A DNA stretch of 6,485 bases, from contig NZ_CM001976.1 in assembly GCF_000406145.1 (NCBI RefSeq), positions 1,428,730 to 1,435,214 on the forward strand, in the 5' to 3' direction. The notes under the pieces were generated by a model. The model was not told the origin of the DNA, made no database searches, and saw only the letters and a program-made list of their open reading frames with translations. The stretch comes from Dickeya dadantii NCPPB 898. GTDB taxonomy: Bacteria > Pseudomonadota > Gammaproteobacteria > Enterobacterales > Enterobacteriaceae. Of the stretch, positions 422-6,339 are shown piece after piece (positions within the stretch are counted from its first letter, which is position 1; each line of letters begins with the position of its first letter). Position numbers and translations under genes: made by a program.

Positions 422-694
422 CTTCACTCCTTTTTTCCGATGCGATGGCCGACGCCATACAGTGCGCCCATTGTGGCACAGCACACATCACGGCACGATG
501 GGATAAAAGTGAATTTGAAAAGTCAGGGGGCGGTACCTTCATAGAAAACTAATTTGTGATTTATATCTCAAATTTAAGGGGTCGTTTCGCTCGCTTTTTA
601 AACCAATAAAGAACAAATGCAAAATCTGCGCATGGTCATTGCTTTATGAACGGGCGAAGTCACACCTAACCGTTCAACAACAAGGAGCAAGACC
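422..694. promoter_or_regulatory. Divergent amn / hcp intergenic control region
   Basis: This 273-bp non-coding stretch is clearly more AT-rich than both flanks and lies between two divergently oriented start codons (amn 421, hcp 695). It must hold both promoters. I could not place a convincing -35/-10 pair or a sigma-54 -24/-12 element by eye. Confidence 0.5.
551..572. promoter_or_regulatory. Candidate CRP (cAMP receptor protein) operator
   Basis: ATTTGTGAtttataTCTCAAAT has TGTGA at 554-558, a 6-nt spacer, and TCTCA at 565-569, against the consensus TGTGA-N6-TCACA. By my count it matches about 15 of 22 positions of the AAATGTGATCTAGATCACATTT consensus. It lies roughly midway between the divergent amn and hcp starts. 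Confidence 0.3.
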
Positions 695-1213
695 ATGCCA
701 ACTCCATGCTATATCAGCATCGAAGGTAAAACTCAGGGCAATATCACCGCCGGCGCCTTTACTTCCGACTCTGTCGGCAACATCTACGTGCAGGGCCACG
801 AAGATGAGATGCTGGTGCAGGAATTCAAACACATCGTCACCGTGCCGACCGACCCGCAGTCCGGCCAGCCGTCCGGTCAGCGCGTGCACAAACCGTTCAA
901 ATTCACCGTCGCCCTGAACAAGGCCGTGCCGCTGCTGTATAACGCGCTGGCGTCCGGCGAAATGCTGCCGACCGTGACCCTGAAGTGGTACCGCACGTCT
1001 GTCGAAGGCAAGCAGGAGCATTTCTTCACCACCAAACTGACCGACGCCACCATTGTCGACATCAACAACCAGATGCCGCACTGCCAGGACCCGTCCAAGC
1101 AGGATTACACCCAGCTGATCGAAGTGTCGCTGGCGTACCGCAAAATCGACTGGGAACACACCGTGGCCGGGACTTCCGGCTCTGACGACTGGCGCGCGCC
1201 GATCGAAGCGTAA
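695..1213 (+). CDS. hcp: Type VI secretion tube protein Hcp (TssD), 172 aa
   Basis: The translation MPTPCYISIEGKTQGNITAG...HEDEMLVQEF.H.VTVPTDPQSGQPSGQRVHKPFKFTVALNKAVPLLYNAL...KWYRTS.EGKQE.FFTTKL...MPHCQDP...AGTSGSDDWRAPIEA is near-identical in pattern to enterobacterial Hcp. AGGAG at 683-687 lies 7 nt before the ATG. The size (172 aa) is typical. Confidence 0.97.
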   Translation: MPTPCYISIEGKTQGNITAGAFTSDSVGNIYVQGHEDEMLVQEFKHIVTVPTDPQSGQPSGQRVHKPFKFTVALNKAVPLLYNALASGEMLPTVTLKWYRTSVEGKQEHFFTTKLTDATIVDINNQMPHCQDPSKQDYTQLIEVSLAYRKIDWEHTVAGTSGSDDWRAPIEA

Positions 1214-1222
1214 TCACGCCGC

Positions 1223-1255
1223 AACCCGGACTCCGGTCCGGGTTTTTCTGTTTTT
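1223..1255 (+). terminator. Rho-independent terminator or attenuator after hcp
   Basis: A perfect 9-bp stem pairs AACCCGGAC (1223-1231) with GTCCGGGTT (1236-1244) around the 4-nt loop TCCG. It runs straight into TTTTTCTGTTTTT. It starts 10 nt after the hcp stop codon. Confidence 0.7.
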
Positions 1256-1378
1256 GTCTGCGCTGAGCGATGACGCGCCCATCGCTGAGTGCAGTCGTAT
1301 TGATCATGATTTTACGCTGACGCACGGCATCAGACCGGGTGTGCGGTAGCTATGGAGCCGGGGAAAGGAGGAAGCAAG

Positions 1379-3416
1379 GTGGCTAACAGTACAGGATTGC
1401 AGTTTACCGTGAAAATCGGCGCATTGGCGGACACCACCTTCGCGGTGGTGGATTTCGAACTGAGTGAGGCGCTGAACCAGCCGTTTGCGCTGTCGCTGAG
1501 TCTCGCCAGCAGTCAGGCCGATATCGATTTCGGCGCGGTGCTGGACCAACCGTGCGAGCTGATGGTGTGGTACGAAGGCGCACTGCAACGCCGGGTCAGC
1601 GGTATCGTCAGCCGCTTTGCCCAGGGCGACACCGGCTTTCGCCGCACCCGCTATCAGGCCGAGGTGCGCCCGGCGCTGTGGCGGCTGGGGCTGCGTACCA
1701 ACGCCCGTATCTTCCAGACCAAAAAGCCGGATGAGATTATCACCGAACTTGCTGCAAGAAGCCGGGATCACCGATTTTGCCTTTGCCCTGCGCCACGACC
1801 ACGCGGTGCGCGAATACTGCGTGCAGTACCGCGAAAGCGACCTGGCGTTCATCCACCGGCTGGCGGCGGAAGAAGGGCTGTTCTACTTCCACGAATTCGA
1901 AGCCGACAAGCACCGGGTGGTGTTTGCCGACGACGCCGGCGCGCTGACCAAAGGCCCCGAGCTGTTTTTTAACCTGGCAACACAAGGGCTGACCGAAGGC
2001 GCCTACGTGCGCCGTTTCCGCTACGCCGAAGCGGTAAGCACCGCCGAGGTGGAACTGAAAGATTACTGTTTTAAAACCCCGGCCTACGGGCTGTCGCACA
2101 AAAAGACCAGTAACGAGCTGGAGCACCAGCGCGAATCCTACCAGCACTTCGACTACCCCGGTCGTTTTAAGCAAGATCCGAGCGGCAAGGCGTTTACCGG
2201 CTACCGACTGGACGCGCTGCGTGCGGATGCGATAACCGGTGTGGGGGAGTCCAACGCCGCCGAACTGCGGCCGGGCAGCGCTTTTACCCTGACTGAACAC
2301 CCGAACCCGGCGTTCAATCTGGCCTGGCAGGTGGTGGCGGTGACCCACAGCGGTCAGCAGCCACAGGCGCTGGAAGAGGAAAGCGGCGGCGAGCCGACCA
2401 CGCTCAGCAACAGCTTTGAGGTGGTGAAAGGATCCACCACCTGGCGCGCGGCGCTGCCGTACAAGCCGATGGTAGACGGCCCGCAGATTGCCACCGTGGT
2501 CGGCCCGGCGGGCGAAGAGATTTACTGCGATAAATTTGGCCGGGTGAAGCTGCAATTCCCGTGGGACCGCTACGGCGCCAGCGACGACCAGAGCTCCTGC
2601 TGGGTGCGGGTCAGTCAGGGCTGGGCCGGCGGGCAGTACGGGTTAATCGCCATTCCACGTATCGGCCATGAGGTGGTGGTGAGCTTTCTGGAGGGCGACC
2701 CGGACCAGCCGCTTATCACCGGCCGGACGTTCCATGCCACCAACCCCACGCCGTATGTGCTGCCGGAGCACAAAACACGCACTACGCTGCGTACCGATAC
2801 CCACAAAGGCAGCGGTTTCAACGAACTTCGTTTCGAAGATGAGGCCACCCGGGAGCAGATTTACCTGCACGCACAGAAAGACATGGACGCGGTGATCAAC
2901 AACATTCATCGCCAGAGCGTCGGGTTGGATCAGCATCTGAGTGTGGCGAACGACCAGTTCCAGCGGGTGGATCGCCATAGCCATCGCACCATCGGGCAGG
3001 ATGATTTTGAACAGATTGGGCAGGACCATCATCAATCGATTGGTCGCCATCTCGTACAGAGCATCACCCAGTCATTCAAGCGCTTTATCGGCGGCGGCGA
3101 GATCACCCGTATTGAAGGCAGCCGCCAGACTACGCTGTCTGGTTCGGAAGAGACGCTGATCGGCGCGCATCAGCGGGTGCTGGTCAATACCGACAGCTAC
3201 CTCAAGGCGGCGGATATCGTGCTGGAAGCCGGGCAGTCGCTGACTATCAAAGCACCCGGCGGATTTATCAAAATCGACGGCGCCGGCGTCACCATCTCCG
3301 GCACGGTGGTGAAAATCAACGACGGCGGTTCCGCAGGCGCGGGCACGGCGCCGGTGTCGATCGAGCCGGAGGCTCCCACCAGACCGACGCTGCCAGATGC
3401 GCCGGACCGGCGTTAA
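1379..3416 (+). pseudogene. vgrG: VgrG (TssI) spike protein gene with a +1 frame disruption near 1748-1751
   Basis: The 5' part (track ORF 1352-1972) reads (M)[43 protein letters not shown]...[36 protein letters not shown] and then turns into Arg/Pro-rich nonsense. VgrG-like sequence resumes one frame over (track ORF 1617-3416) as [47 protein letters not shown]. That frame continues through the gp5 OB-fold ([33 protein letters not shown]...[47 protein letters not shown]) and the beta-helix repeats to a stop at 3414-3416. The likely true start is GTG 1379, with GGAGG at 1367-1371 and a 7-nt spacer. ATG 1352 has no Shine-Dalgarno sequence. Removing one nucleotide from CTTG (1748-1751) gives a single 678-codon ORF. 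Confidence 0.88.
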
Positions 3417-3425
3417 GGAGTCACC

Positions 3426-4796
3426 ATGCCAGGAGCTGCGCGTTTAGGGGACAGCTGTGCCGGTCACGGCTGCTTTCCCGCCACCCCGGTGATTGCGGGC
3501 AGTGGCGATGTGATTATCAATGGCAAACCGGCGGCGCGTAAAGGCGATGCGGTGTTGCTGCACGCCTGCCCATGCCCGAATATGCCGCACGGGGTTCACA
3601 GCCGGGCGATTTCCGCCGGTTCTGGTACGGTGATCATCAACGGTAAGCTGGCCGCCCGTATCGGCGATGCCATCGGCTGTGGCGGCTCGGTGGCGGCCGG
3701 CAGCGGGGATGTGATTATTGGCGATACGCCTTACCAGTCGCCGGTTAAATCCTGTGCGGAACAGTCGGCGAAAAGCCGCGCTCCGCTGCTGGCGCTAACG
3801 CCGATGCTGCTGCCCGCCATGATGGAATGGGCAGCAACCGTCGAACTGCCGGTGCTGGATGAAGCGCTGACGGTATTACAGCGTAAGGATCGCTATCTGG
3901 CGCGCGCTAAGCTGGCGCAACAGGCGGCGACCATGCCGAGCCTGAAAGACGCCGCCACCCGACTGGCGTTTAACAACGACAGCATCTTGCGCGCCGAAGC
4001 GGCGCAGTATGTTTATCCGGTGGATGAATTTAGACGTAAGGTAAGGGCTGTTTTGCCAAAGCCTCCTGTTGGACTTGAGGTTATTGATATAAAGAGCTTT
4101 CCTAAAATTACTCCTAAGCAATTTACTGACCCAGACTCAGGATTTGGAGCAGCGCTATTTAAGTCATCTATTAATAATGAAACGATGTTGACATTTAGAG
4201 GAACCAATAATGGTGTAACAGGTGCTAAAGATTGGCTTACAAATGGGGCTCAAGGAATAGGATTTGAAACAGCTCAATATAATCAGGCAATGGATTTGGC
4301 AAAATTGATGAAGAGACTTGTATCTCCAGAACCTGTTATTGTTGGTCACTCTTTAGGGGGAGGGTTAGCTTCTGCTGCTGTTAGTGCAACCAAATTACCA
4401 GGGTATATTTTTAATGCTGCTGGTCTTCATGCCAACACTGTTGCTAGGCAACAAGGTGCTGATTTGGCTACTACCAGTTCCTTAATTAAAACTCAAGCAG
4501 TAGATGGCGAAATCCTTACTATGCTCCAATCCTATGGCAAAGTTGCTGTACCGGGTTTACTTTCTGGTGCGGGTGCTTTGATCGGGGGTAAGGTTGGGGC
4601 TATTGCTGGTGGAGTGGCTGGTATTACGACATTGTTAGCTGGCTCTCTTCCCAGCGCTTTAGGTGAGATGAAAACATTACCTAGTTCAGGGGGATCTCCA
4701 TTAGCCCGACACGGCATGGACCAAGTTGTAGCCGGTATTGAAAAAGAAAAGAAAGAAGATATTGGAAAAATTACCAGCACGCTTAAGGGGGCATAA
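3426..4796 (+). CDS. tle: PAAR-domain T6SS effector fused to a GxSxG alpha/beta-hydrolase (class-3-like lipase/phospholipase) toxin domain, 456 aa
   Basis: The N-terminus (aa 1-100) is a PAAR spike-tip domain: AARLGDSCAGHG...VIINGKPAARKGD...VIINGKLAARIGD...GSGDVIIGD, with Cys/His metal-ligand candidates. The C-terminus has lipase_3-type motifs: GFGAALFKS...MLTFRGTNNGVTGAKDWLTN, the nucleophile elbow VIVGHSLGGGLA (Ser309, nt 4350-4352), a candidate Asp360 (4503-4505) and a candidate His429 (4710-4712). AGGAG at 3416-3420 precedes the ATG, 9 nt after the vgrG stop. The symbol tle is used only in the generic sense of type VI lipase effector, and no Tle1-4 subfamily is assigned. Confidence 0.9.
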   Translation: MPGAARLGDSCAGHGCFPATPVIAGSGDVIINGKPAARKGDAVLLHACPCPNMPHGVHSRAISAGSGTVIINGKLAARIGDAIGCGGSVAAGSGDVIIGDTPYQSPVKSCAEQSAKSRAPLLALTPMLLPAMMEWAATVELPVLDEALTVLQRKDRYLARAKLAQQAATMPSLKDAATRLAFNNDSILRAEAAQYVYPVDEFRRKVRAVLPKPPVGLEVIDIKSFPKITPKQFTDPDSGFGAALFKSSINNETMLTFRGTNNGVTGAKDWLTNGAQGIGFETAQYNQAMDLAKLMKRLVSPEPVIVGHSLGGGLASAAVSATKLPGYIFNAAGLHANTVARQQGADLATTSSLIKTQAVDGEILTMLQSYGKVAVPGLLSGAGALIGGKVGAIAGGVAGITTLLAGSLPSALGEMKTLPSSGGSPLARHGMDQVVAGIEKEKKEDIGKITSTLKGA

Positions 4797-5575
4797 TGCG
4801 ATGGTTACAGAAAATCAAATGGATCGCCGTATTGTTTGCGGGAATATTGACCGCCTGTCAGGCCGGAGGGCACAGCATGCAGGCCAGTGAATTGTTCCAG
4901 CCACCGATGGCGGCTTTATTGCAGACCATCCGCAAAGGTGATGAAGCGGAAGCACGGCGCCAGCTAGCCCAGGGGCTGAATCTGAATATTCAGGGTAAAG
5001 AAGGGATTACGCCGCTGCTGTGGCTGATTTATGAAACGCAGGATAAGAACGCAGTACGGCTGGCGTTAAAACTGGGGGCCGATCCAAATTACAAAGATGG
5101 CTCAGGCGACAGTGCGGTAAACCGGGTATCCGGTGTGCGTGATCCGGACTGGTTGCGCATTGTTCTGGATGCCGGGGGAAATCCGAATGCCATTGGGAGA
5201 CTTGAGCAACCGGCGTTATTTAGTGCGATAGGTGAAGAGCGCTGGGCCGATATCAAACTGTTGGTAGAGCGAGGGGCAGATATAAATTTAAAAGATAGTT
5301 TGGATAGAAACAGTGTGTTGTATGCGGGGTATTTGAATAAATATGAAATCGCATATTGGCTAATAGAAAAGGGTGCTGATATTACCATATATGATGCAAC
5401 AGGTAGTAATATGGCATGGACTGTGGAAGATAGTTTATCTGTTATGCCACATAATGCAGCGTCGTATCCGTGGGGCATTAAAGTAAGAGAATTGCTACAA
5501 CAACGCGGTATTAAATTTCCCCCCTTATCTCCGGCAGAAGTACGGGAGCGCCGTGCTAAAGGGGAGCCGCTTTGA
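4796..5575 (+). CDS. tli: Ankyrin-repeat lipoprotein, putative cognate immunity protein for the lipase effector, 259 aa
   Basis: The start ATG overlaps the effector stop (TAATG, 4794-4798), which suggests translational coupling. The N-terminus MRWLQKIKWIAVLFAGILTAC is a lipoprotein signal peptide with lipobox L-T-A-C (Cys21, 4856-4858). The body contains several ANK repeats (GITPLLWLIYE..NAVRLALKLGADPNYKD; DWLRIVLDAGGNPNA; RWADIKLLVERGADINLKD; YEIAYWLIEKGADITIYD). The position directly 3' of a periplasm-acting lipase toxin fits an immunity role. Confidence 0.88.
   Translation: MRWLQKIKWIAVLFAGILTACQAGGHSMQASELFQPPMAALLQTIRKGDEAEARRQLAQGLNLNIQGKEGITPLLWLIYETQDKNAVRLALKLGADPNYKDGSGDSAVNRVSGVRDPDWLRIVLDAGGNPNAIGRLEQPALFSAIGEERWADIKLLVERGADINLKDSLDRNSVLYAGYLNKYEIAYWLIEKGADITIYDATGSNMAWTVEDSLSVMPHNAASYPWGIKVRELLQQRGIKFPPLSPAEVRERRAKGEPL
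4852..5290 (+). repeat. Direct repeat copy A (about 435 bp, 5' two-thirds of tli copy 1)
   Basis: My hand alignment to 5616-6054 (offset 764 bp) finds about 26 mismatches and no indels, or about 94% identity. Identity starts within a few nt of the lipobox Cys codon and drops abruptly after ...GCAGATAT(A/C)AATTTA. Confidence 0.85.
4865..4879 (+). promoter_or_regulatory. Internal ribosome-binding site plus in-frame ATG (Met28) just after the lipobox Cys of tli copy 1
   Basis: GGAGG at 4865-4869 is followed by the 7-nt spacer GCACAGC and ATG at 4877-4879. The ATG is in frame, 7 codons after Cys21. The Shine-Dalgarno sequence is stronger than the one at the annotated start. Confidence 0.55.
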
Positions 5576-6339
5576 GGTGGTGGCATTGTCTGCTGGCTTG
5601 CGTGCCGCTGTTAAGCGCCTGTCAGGCAGGAGGGCACAGCATGCAGGCCAGTGAGTTGTTCCAGCCACCGATGGCGGCCTTATTGCAGGCCATCCGCAAA
5701 GGTGATGAAGCGGAAGCACGGCGTCAGCTAGCCCAGGGGCTGAATCTGAATATTCACGGTAAAGAAGGGATTACGCCGCTGCTGTGGTTGATTTATGAAA
5801 CGCAGGATAAGAACGCGGTACGGCTGGCGCTAAAGCTGGGCGCTGACCCGAATTATAAAGATGGTTCAGGCGACAGCGCGGTAAACCGGGTATCCGGTGT
5901 GCGTGATCCGGACTGGTTGCGCATTGTTCTGGATGCCGGGGGAAATCCGAATGCCATTGGGAGACTTGGTCAACCGGCATTATTGAGTGCGATCAATGAA
6001 GAGCGCTGGGCCGATATCAAACTGTTGGTAGAGCGTGGGGCAGATATCAATTTAGCAGACAGGCAGAAAAGAAATAGCGCGCTTTATGCTGCGTATATCA
6101 ATCAATATGAGATTGTTTATTGGCTAATAGAGCGTGGTGCTAAAGTCGACACTTATTCTGCCACCGGTGGCAGCCTGGCCTGGCGGGTATATGAAAGCCT
6201 GTCAATAATGGCGCAGAATTCGCCACAATATCCCTGGTTGTTAAAGGTTAAACAGCAGTTACAACAGCGCGGTATTAATTTCCCCCCGCTGTCTCCGGCA
6301 GAGGTACAGGATAAATGGGAACGGGGTGAATTCCTTTAA
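5572..6339 (+). CDS. tli: Second ankyrin-repeat lipoprotein paralog (putative additional or orphan immunity protein), 255 aa from a TTG start
   Basis: This is a paralog of the upstream gene. The only in-frame start that includes a signal peptide is TTG 5572-5574, which overlaps the upstream stop (TTGA, 5572-5575). GGGGAG lies 5 nt upstream. The signal peptide is short: MRWWHCLLACVPLLSAC, with lipobox L-S-A-C (Cys17, 5620-5622). The 5' end is uncertain, and translation may begin mainly at the internal ATG 5641. Confidence 0.8.
   Translation: MRWWHCLLACVPLLSACQAGGHSMQASELFQPPMAALLQAIRKGDEAEARRQLAQGLNLNIHGKEGITPLLWLIYETQDKNAVRLALKLGADPNYKDGSGDSAVNRVSGVRDPDWLRIVLDAGGNPNAIGRLGQPALLSAINEERWADIKLLVERGADINLADRQKRNSALYAAYINQYEIVYWLIERGAKVDTYSATGGSLAWRVYESLSIMAQNSPQYPWLLKVKQQLQQRGINFPPLSPAEVQDKWERGEFL
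5616..6054 (+). repeat. Direct repeat copy B (about 435 bp, 5' two-thirds of tli copy 2)
   Basis: This is the partner of 4852-5290. See that entry for the alignment details. Confidence 0.85.
5629..5643 (+). promoter_or_regulatory. Internal ribosome-binding site plus in-frame ATG (Met24) just after the lipobox Cys of tli copy 2
   Basis: The arrangement matches copy 1: GGAGG at 5629-5633, the 7-nt spacer GCACAGC, and ATG at 5641-5643, 7 codons after Cys17. It is conserved even though the upstream signal-peptide codons are unrelated between the copies. Confidence 0.55.

Follow-up and report, generated by a model that had tools for sequence, protein, structure and literature searches.

The 6,485-nt window analysed here, positions 1,428,730-1,435,214 of the forward strand of NZ_CM001976.1 (Dickeya dadantii NCPPB 898, GCF_000406145.1), very probably carries a polymorphic type VI secretion system (T6SS) effector-immunity module of the Tle6 family, consisting of a PAAR-lipase effector, its cognate immunity protein Tli1 and a probable orphan immunity protein, Tli2. 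On the evidence of sequence and modelled fold, the effector is a full-length homologue, across the lipase domain, of the Tle lipase of Enterobacter cloacae ATCC 13047, which together with its immunity protein Tli (ECL_01553/ECL_01554; 7UBZ, 9CYS; hereafter Tle(ECL) and Tli(ECL)) is the founding Tle6/Tli6 pair. The Dickeya PAAR-Tle6 protein is an uncharacterised member of this described family, and its subclass of Dickeya PAAR fusions is already in print. To this picture our analysis adds the family-wide conservation of the residues that are crosslinked in the E. cloacae enzyme, a conserved internal start signal in the tli genes, and a reading of tandem tli arrays as the outcome of allele replacement. 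Current understanding is not overturned; rather, a gene set that is common in Dickeya and Pectobacterium, and annotated there as “PAAR domain-containing” and “ankyrin repeat domain-containing”, is connected to the experimentally defined Tle6/Tli6 pair.

The PAAR-lipase effector

Open reading frames (ORFs) were taken from a six-frame listing of the window, which on the plus strand gave hcp, a split vgrG and ORFs of 456, 259 and 255 aa, and the sequences of gene junctions were read directly. Families were assigned using Pfam (E <= 0.1 for the effector) and NCBIfam models, phmmer searches against PDB sequences, and Foldseek for the fold. All features described below lie on the plus strand unless stated otherwise. 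The 456-aa ORF, tle6 (3426..4796), encodes a PAAR-linker-lipase effector exactly identical to WP_038910662.1 of Dickeya dadantii, and an AAGGAG Shine-Dalgarno sequence stands 7 nt before its ATG at 3426. The T6SS delivery elements that accompany the lipase are this N-terminal PAAR domain and the hcp and vgrG genes immediately upstream.

Residues 1-99 (3426..3722) form the PAAR domain, a cone that caps the VgrG spike. PF05488 (PAAR_motif) matched above its cut-off (E 9.7e-19), NF033420 (T6SS_PAAR_dom) aligned aa 1-99 to positions 1-94 of its 94 (E 7.9e-32; 109 bits, under the equivalog cut-off of 124), and the PDB PAAR proteins 4JIV and 4JIW matched at E 1e-16 and 4e-14, respectively. A linker of low model confidence (aa 100-153; 3723..3884) leads into the Tle6 phospholipase domain (aa 154-456; 3885..4793). 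In an AlphaFold2 (AF2) model built with 73 homologues, the confidence score pLDDT exceeded 90 across most of the lipase domain and was <50 for aa 1-146.

Given that the generic lipase models remained below threshold (Lipase_3 at 18.3 bits against a cut-off of 22, with Abhydrolase_6, Mbeg1-like and Abhydrolase_1 also sub-threshold), the family was placed by PDB sequence search and fold search. With phmmer, aa 154-451 aligned to residues 15-311 of 7UBZ_B, the E. cloacae T6SS lipase effector (E 6e-28), and the best PDB match of the model in Foldseek was 9CYS_A (E 4e-17, target TM 0.71), followed by fungal feruloyl esterases and lipases at E about 1e-5 (next best 1.5e-5). In sequence and fold alike, the domain is homologous to residues 172-472 of Tle(ECL). 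A precomputed annotation assigns it to PF26363 (Phospholipase-like).

The T6SS phospholipase families Tle1-Tle5 and their immunity proteins Tli1-5 were reportedly described by Russell et al. in 2013. They include DUF2235 proteins (Tle1), class-3 lipases (Tle2), DUF3274 proteins (Tle3), PGAP1-like enzymes (Tle4) and dual HxKxxxxD phospholipase D (PLD) enzymes (Tle5). Membership of the Dickeya effector in Tle1-5 was considered and rejected: the Pfam scan of the effector found no DUF2235, DUF3274, PGAP1 or PLD(c) match, and its E. cloacae homologue belongs to none of these families, the group having been named Tle6 (Jensen 2024; PMC11470151). The Dickeya system shares with Tle1-5 a T6SS-delivered, periplasm-acting phospholipase and periplasmic or lipoprotein immunity, as well as the GxSxG motif of Tle1-4 and the tandem immunity genes found at some loci, but the immunity proteins of Tle1-5, unlike the Dickeya Tli proteins, are not known to contain ankyrin repeats. 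Representative Tle1, 2, 4 and 5 enzymes are active without an immunity protein (PMC11470151).

The effector contains a single GxSxG motif, GHSLG at aa 307-311. We aligned 73 Tle sequences, ranging from 98% to 43% identity and carrying differing N-terminal domains, and matched residues to full-length Tle(ECL) by applying an offset of 159 to the 7UBZ chain numbering. This placed the nucleophile at Ser309 within GHSLG (4350..4352; Ser341 of Tle(ECL)) and the catalytic base at His429 (4710..4712; His448), both present in 73/73 homologues, and the catalytic acid at Glu362 (4509..4511; Glu393), which is Glu in 69/73 and Asp in 4/73. The corresponding S341/E393/H448 triad has been reported for Tle(ECL) (PMC11470151; bioRxiv 10.1101/2023.03.28.534661).

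In addition, Tle(ECL) is active only once methylglyoxal has crosslinked Arg180 (alpha1) to Lys461 (alpha13), with help from Glu458; this crosslink (MODIC) forms only with cytosolic Tli (PMC11470151). By alignment, the Arg side corresponds to Arg160 of the Dickeya effector (codon 3903..3905; conserved in 72/73) and the Lys side to the segment Glu439-Lys-Glu-Lys442 (4740..4751), in which Glu439 and Lys442 match Glu458 and Lys461 and are conserved in 73/73 and 72/73, respectively. The sole exception among the 73 is P0112 (Thalassotalea euphylliae, 308 aa), where Arg is replaced by Asn and Lys by Ile together, as would be expected of a functionally coupled pair. P0112 stands alone, without a delivery domain, and may be a naturally occurring Tle that does without the crosslink.

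Between the catalytic Glu and His lies a hydrophobic glycine-zipper segment (aa 375-405; 4548..4640), a GxxxG run with Gly at 383/387/391/395/399 that contains the most hydrophobic 19-residue windows of the effector and is modelled by AF2 as a helix with low pLDDT. In the alignment described above, the zipper is kept in 70/73 homologues and is absent only from a Vibrio nigripulchritudo-type trio, which rules it out as an insert unique to the Dickeya protein. By pairwise alignment, Tle(ECL) has no zipper and carries a shorter non-glycine segment instead. The segment might be a membrane-insertion or second-lid element of the lipase.

A first-pass annotation of this DNA, made from the sequence alone, had described a PAAR domain fused in one ORF to a GHSLG hydrolase and had pointed to a related E. 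cloacae Tle/Tli pair from the Hayes laboratory; both statements were borne out, by the PF05488 match and the GHSLG motif in the one case and by the sequence and fold matches to 7UBZ/9CYS in the other. It had also assigned the enzyme to the Tle1-4 class, which the absence of DUF2235, DUF3274, PGAP1 and PLD matches and the placement of the homologue in Tle6 contradict. Of the features that it had thought distinctive, the PAAR fusion turned out to be reported already for Dickeya, Erwinia and Vibrio homologues (in passages of Jensen 2023), and the glycine zipper is real but is not peculiar to the Dickeya protein.

The Dickeya locus shares with the E. cloacae pair homology along the whole length of the lipase, the Ser/Glu/His triad, the Arg/Glu/Lys residues at the MODIC positions, and a homologous gene for a six-ankyrin-repeat lipoprotein immediately 3' of tle, with effectors of comparable length (456 aa in Dickeya vs 472 aa for Tle(ECL)). 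It differs in the ~30-residue glycine zipper, in having two tandem tli genes, and in its N-terminus, which is a canonical PAAR domain, whereas that of Tle(ECL) is described in a passage of Jensen 2023 as a “novel N-terminal domain” presumed to bind VgrG. The Slp lipase of Serratia marcescens, an effector said to have been described by Cianfanelli et al. in 2016, is to our knowledge not a PAAR fusion. According to Jensen et al. (PMC11470151), Slp is homologous to Tle(ECL) and falls within the same proposed Tle6 group.

Passages of Jensen 2023 (bioRxiv 10.1101/2023.03.28.534661) report homologous lipase domains with linked ankyrin genes in Erwinia, Dickeya, Burkholderia and Vibrio, and list PAAR, VgrG, DUF4150, Rhs and CdiA as delivery fusions of Tle(ECL) homologues. 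Further mentions occur in parts of a 2015 study of D. zeae EC1 (PMC4522980), which lists a PAAR phospholipase A1, PldA, followed by two ankyrin genes, and of a 2022 study of Pectobacterium (PMC8831359), which lists a GxSxG phospholipase gene in a T6SS cluster and “ank” among putative immunity genes. The locus in the window is one of these reported Dickeya PAAR fusions, in an hcp-vgrG-(tle-tli)-DUF4123-rhs arrangement. The relevant passages of the three sources offer annotation only, and residue conservation, the internal start, allele structure and orphan arrays were not found in them.

Immunity genes and proposed allele replacement

Two genes follow tle6, namely tli1 (4796..5575), which encodes the cognate Tli6 immunity lipoprotein of 259 aa, and tli2 (5572..6339), which encodes a second Tli6 paralogue of 255 aa and begins with TTG. 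The tle stop overlaps the ATG start of tli1 in TAATG, and the tli1 stop overlaps the tli2 start in TTGA; overlaps of this kind suggest that translation of the tli genes is coupled to that of tle. The Tli1 lipobox is ILTAC, with Cys21 at 4856-4858, and that of Tli2 is LSAC, with Cys17 at 5620-5622, while the Pfam model Ank_2 matched both proteins above threshold (E 1e-11 and 5e-12). Against 7UBZ_A, Tli1 aligned in a single stretch from aa 34-244 to chain residues 9-227 (E 8e-20) and Tli2 in a single full-length stretch (E 1e-20), both alignments to Tli(ECL) spanning the non-ankyrin C-terminal tail.

In a survey of 79 species-level loci drawn from a genome scan, every tle homologue with readable downstream DNA was followed directly 3' by one to six tli genes, with six in D. 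oryzae, five in Brenneria alni and four in a Shewanella. The possibility that two tli genes are unusual was ruled out, arrays of 1-6 copies being common. At three loci, L028 (Symbiopectobacterium), L033 (Lonsdalea britannica) and L044 (Brenneria rubrifaciens), tle is split into two ORFs and tli is kept; the downstream tli is intact in L033 and L044 and N-terminally truncated in L028. Such broken-tle loci would fit toxin decay with retention of immunity.

The two immunity genes in the window are mosaic. Their signal-peptide regions are unrelated, their DNA is about 95% identical over alignment columns 61-480 (from the lipobox Cys to about codon 160), and identity is about 65% over columns 481-780. 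The conserved tract, 4856..5275 in tli1 and 5620-6039 in tli2, is a likely recombination substrate between the copies, and the diverged C-terminal third of tli2 (6040..6336), which covers ankyrin repeats ~4-6 and the tail, is predicted to be the lipase-contacting, specificity-determining part. In the E. cloacae complex, helices alpha8, alpha10 and alpha12 of Tli(ECL) pack against the lid helix of Tle (PMC11470151; bioRxiv 10.1101/2023.03.28.534661). We infer that these helices are those of ankyrin repeats 4-6, i.e. of the diverged third, and by homology the Dickeya Tli proteins would bind and neutralise the lipase through sequestering of the lid helix, as Tli(ECL) does. The first-pass annotation had described two overlapping lipobox ankyrin genes, which the junctions (TAATG, TTGA), the above-threshold Ank_2 matches and Cys21/Cys17 confirm, and had judged the mosaic two-gene immunity arrangement distinctive: the mosaic is real (95% vs 65% in DNA), but given the common arrays of 1-6 copies the tandem arrangement is not a distinguishing feature.

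The toxin gene has a mosaic structure of its own, in which an allele-variable core (aa ~205-456; 4038..4796) starts at a break in DNA identity. At this break, at ~4040, identity to the D. oryzae allele (L007) falls from 82-97% to 50-75%, and GC content across the PAAR-lipase junction drops from 63% (PAAR and linker) to 46% (lipase). Among the divergent Dickeya alleles compared (L007 and L081-L083, where L082 is D. dadantii CP077422 and L081 another D. dadantii strain), aa 1-204 of Tle are 96.6-98% identical and the core is 67-75% identical. The window and L081 Tle proteins differ mainly at aa 205-235 and over aa 283-298 (4272..4319), the predicted lid helix, an allele-variable segment that corresponds to alpha6 of Tle(ECL) and is followed by strand 304-309 and Ser309. 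The predicted lid helix of Tle and the C-terminal third of Tli are where the allele-variable patches lie, which lends indirect support to neutralisation through the lid helix.

Comparison of arrays between genomes indicates how the two immunity genes relate to these toxin alleles. Tli1 travels with the window Tle allele in L001 (CP023467, a genome near-identical to the window) and in L002. The C-terminal third of Tli2 is 60% identical to that of Tli1, 87% to that of the first-position Tli of L081, which presumably is the cognate of L081 Tle, and 97% to that of the third-position Tli of L082. In L082, a third Tle core is followed by a new first-position tli and then by window-type tli1 (99% over the C-terminal 99 aa) and window-type tli2 (97%), while in L007 a copy of the window Tli1 type (97%) occupies position 4 of the array. 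Array position sets the signal-peptide type, and recombination must therefore take place within the conserved 5' two-thirds of tli. On these sequence comparisons, Tli1, the first after tle, is the cognate immunity protein, and Tli2 is likely an orphan, a displaced immunity protein directed at a non-self Tle6 allele that is either circulating or ancestral.

Organization of this kind resembles that of Rhs and contact-dependent inhibition (CDI) loci, which likewise combine a constant N-terminal delivery region with a variable toxin core and a sharp break in GC and identity, and in which displaced immunity genes pile up downstream of a leading cognate gene. Unlike in Rhs/CDI loci, only immunity genes accumulate, no orphan toxin fragments being seen in the window, and the recombination tracts take in the conserved 5' two-thirds of the immunity gene. 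That Tle6 loci would follow the evolutionary course of polymorphic toxin loci has a bearing on how strains of soft-rot pathogens compete.

Internal start signals, proposed mechanism and alternatives

Both tli genes contain an internal Met seven codons past the lipobox Cys, preceded by a Shine-Dalgarno sequence. In tli1, GGAGG at 4865-4869 is separated by a 7-nt spacer from the ATG of Met28 at 4877-4879 (4865..4879), the predicted start of a cytosolic isoform; in tli2, direct reading gives AGGAGG at 5628-5633, a 7-nt spacer and the ATG of Met24 at 5641-5643 (5628..5643). Most tli genes at the surveyed loci keep a Met seven codons past the Cys, in many gammaproteobacterial genera from Dickeya to Rheinheimera and Halovibrio and in a Geopsychrobacteraceae metagenome-assembled genome (MAG), and a match of at least 4 nt to the Shine-Dalgarno consensus precedes this conserved Met in 63/84 non-redundant tli genes, a set of related sequences whose counts are not independent. 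The Gly codon at Met-4 is GGA in 43/50 and GGG in 7/50, and is never GGC or GGT (0/50). Elsewhere in the same genes the four Gly codons are used at 21/19/31/28%, and the neighbouring Ala codon uses all four synonyms. This codon pattern indicates selection on the RNA sequence, beyond that on the protein alone.

Tli(ECL) likewise has in-frame start codons with ribosome-binding sites just past its signal peptide, and the combination of lipobox and internal start in the Dickeya genes agrees with the published model, in which one form of Tli is a lipoprotein that confers immunity and the other is cytosolic and activates the lipase. Public annotation often starts the second-position tli at the internal Met, yielding 232-aa products (P0145, P0157, P0164, P0170-P0179 and others), so that the TTG-initiated lipoprotein signal peptide is missed. 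Second-position tli copies consistently start with a weak TTG that overlaps the upstream stop. Such a weak start may shift the balance between the lipoprotein and the cytosolic isoform.

The mechanism that we infer from these sequences, including enzymatic activity, crosslinking, the two isoforms and Tli2 specificity, would run as follows. Judging from its domain, the PAAR cone (aa 1-99) would cap VgrG, and the effector would be exported with the spike, with no separate adaptor. In the target periplasm, the domain bearing the Ser309/Glu362/His429 triad would hydrolyse phospholipids, as homology and the conserved triad suggest. To judge from its E. cloacae homologue, the lipase probably has no activity before a cytosolic Tli lacking the signal peptide has bound; Tli1 started at Met28 would bind nascent Tle in the cytosol and enable a methylglyoxal crosslink between Arg160 (alpha1) and Lys442 (C-terminal helix), with Glu439 assisting, a step to which, from the conserved residues and the conserved internal start, we give slightly better than an even chance. 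Each tli gene would thus have two products, a lipoprotein anchored at Cys21 or Cys17 and a cytosolic form from the internal start. Its lipobox and homology suggest that lipidated Tli1 shields the producer periplasm from siblings by sequestering the incoming lid helix, while array comparisons suggest that Tli2 guards against another Dickeya Tle6 allele. Recombination within the conserved 5' regions of tle and tli would exchange the toxin core together with its cognate tli, leaving Tli2 behind.

Because the Arg/Glu/Lys residues are near-invariant, are lost jointly in the lone exception and are accompanied by a conserved internal start in tli, glycation-dependent activation with help from the immunity protein might be ancestral and general to Tle6, irrespective of how the enzyme is delivered (PAAR, VgrG, Rhs or stand-alone). 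We hold this extension tentatively, at somewhat below an even chance. If true, every tli, orphans included, would be a dual-output gene that provides both a periplasmic shield and a cytosolic activator, and the Dickeya PAAR-Tle6 would be an independent system in which to test the E. cloacae mechanism. The methylglyoxal mechanism, so far that of one species, in this way becomes a prediction for the whole family that can be tested at specified residues and at a specified internal start signal.

Several alternative explanations can be set against this mechanism. Both Tli proteins might serve the resident toxin, with Tli2 as a recent duplicate kept for dosage or for a division of labour between shield and activator. 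The about 95% DNA identity of the N-terminal two-thirds of tli1 and tli2 and the retention of the lipobox and internal Shine-Dalgarno-ATG in both copies are in keeping with this, and the weak TTG first start of tli2, together with its perfect internal AGGAGG, could favour the cytosolic form. We nevertheless consider such a duplicate unlikely, as Tli1 and Tli2 diverge mostly in the C-terminal third (about 60% identical as protein), which by homology contacts the lipase, and Tli2-type C-termini are found beside other Tle alleles; moreover, both window tli types trail the third allele in L082, a pattern pointing to displaced immunity genes and not to dosage duplicates. A shade less likely again is a decaying remnant, in which the PAAR-lipase goes undelivered with vgrG frameshifted and only the immunity genes matter. 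The split of vgrG at ~1743-1746 within a patch of clustered substitutions, and the relatives with broken tle and retained tli (L028, L033 and L044), would be explained by decay, but tle, tli1 and tli2 are all intact, L001 encodes an identical effector alongside an intact vgrG, and a single-base indel can be an assembly error. Dickeya genomes also carry several hcp-vgrG sets, and sets other than the adjacent one would be usable by the PAAR protein. Several hcp-vgrG sets are likewise described for Pectobacterium genomes in a passage of PMC8831359.

Two further alternatives concern the partners and targets of the module. As a soft-rot virulence factor, the lipase might be aimed chiefly at eukaryotic (plant) membranes and not at rival bacteria: the bacterium that carries it infects plants, cross-kingdom activity is known for T6SS phospholipases, and plant membranes are put forward as possible targets in a review. 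This we regard as highly improbable given that periplasm-facing lipoprotein immunity, orphan arrays and allelic replacement are signatures of conflict between bacteria, and that Tle6 relatives occur in Aeromonas, Shewanella, Vibrio and marine MAGs, although plant and bacterial targeting are not mutually exclusive. The least probable account makes the ankyrin proteins accessory or chaperone factors for a downstream DUF4123-Rhs toxin. In relatives, the ankyrin genes do sit between vgrG and DUF4123-rhs, and a 2025 preprint on Rhs toxins of plant pathogens (10.1101/2025.05.08.652813) speculates that ankyrin proteins protect Rhs. Yet these proteins are full-length homologues of the crystallised Tli with lipoprotein signal peptides, their genes lie directly 3' of tle in all 79 loci, including those with other delivery domains and neighbourhoods, and the start/stop overlaps suggest that they are coupled to tle. 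Homology to Tli(ECL) and invariable linkage to tle argue for lipase immunity in place of an Rhs factor, and the suggestion that the ankyrin genes assist Rhs is corrected to that extent.

The reading that we prefer, a Tle6 module with a cognate Tli1 and an orphan Tli2, has points weighing against it as well. The Dickeya effector, an uncharacterised member of the family, shares only about 28% identity with the E. cloacae lipase that has been characterised. The AF2 model gave the PAAR domain pLDDT <50, and the case for the effector architecture therefore comes from sequence models. The vgrG upstream is frameshifted in the window, and the dedicated spike may be defunct, or the frameshift may be a sequence error. 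The conserved Arg/Glu/Lys could form an ordinary salt-bridge network and not a glycation crosslink, and the tli codon counts come from related genes. Finally, a search among the homologues for a first-position Tli identical to Tli2 found none, the best being 87% identical in the variable third (L081).

The surrounding hcp-vgrG island

The window cuts midway through a larger Dickeya island. In L001, starting ~15 bp beyond the position of the window end, come two DUF4123 genes, a gene for a 1670-aa DUF6531-Rhs protein and a DUF7716 gene (L001 13072-20308), and the order tli2, two DUF4123, Rhs and DUF7716 is repeated in L081, L082 and L083. The island is hence a Dickeya hcp-vgrG-tle-tli-DUF4123-rhs cluster, and not the orphan hcp-vgrG island of the first-pass annotation. 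The Rhs protein is the more plausible client of the DUF4123 proteins. The same annotation had noted that no adaptor gene is present and had taken this to fit self-loading through PAAR; the absence holds inside the window, where it is an edge effect given the DUF4123 genes just beyond, and it lends no support to self-loading, for which the fusion itself remains the argument.

The first gene of the island is hcp (695..1213), which encodes the TssD tube protein (Pfam T6SS_HCP E 1e-32; TIGR03344 E 7e-65, over cut-off). It is followed by a terminator-like hairpin with a T-tract (1223..1254), consisting of a 9-bp stem with 6 GC pairs and then TTTCTGTTTT. A promoter and terminator scan of the window gave nothing beyond shuffled expectation except this hairpin, and an Rfam scan of the window matched no RNA family.

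The vgrG gene (1352..3416), for the TssI spike, is split into two ORFs (1352-1972 and 1617-3416), as seen from comparison with L001 and from TIGR03361, of which one ORF matches model positions 1-117 and the other 114-512. The gene is broken near 1743-1746, where one extra base (near 1746) gives a net +1 frameshift; the L001 copy is unbroken and encodes 678 aa. Genuine decay could account for the frameshift, as could a sequencing error. The break sits in a 57-bp patch (1743-1799) that holds 8 further differences from the otherwise near-identical L001. The patch looks like gene conversion from a vgrG paralogue with a 1-nt insertion, or else an assembly error.

Upstream, the window and L001 differ in several other respects. 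Bacterial class C group II introns typically insert next to terminators. Between hcp and vgrG, L001 carries a ~1.87-kb insertion (L001 5962-7827) with a group II intron reverse-transcriptase ORF (RVT_1 and GIIM); it maps to window position ~1251, in or beside the T-tract of the post-hcp hairpin, and is missing from the window. Across hcp and its leader (window 630-1251), 16/622 positions differ from L001, while the 632 bp upstream are 100% identical, and a 145-bp segment of L001 (5195-5339) is absent from the window around position 632. The hcp differences and the missing segment suggest recombination among hcp paralogues at the locus. At the left edge, a minus-strand AMP nucleosidase gene (AMNp_N/PNP_UDP_1) reaches into the window with its 5' end (positions 1-421), as identified by correspondence with the L001 gene at 3526-4983; in several D. 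dadantii strains, this gene borders the island as its conserved flank on the chromosome.

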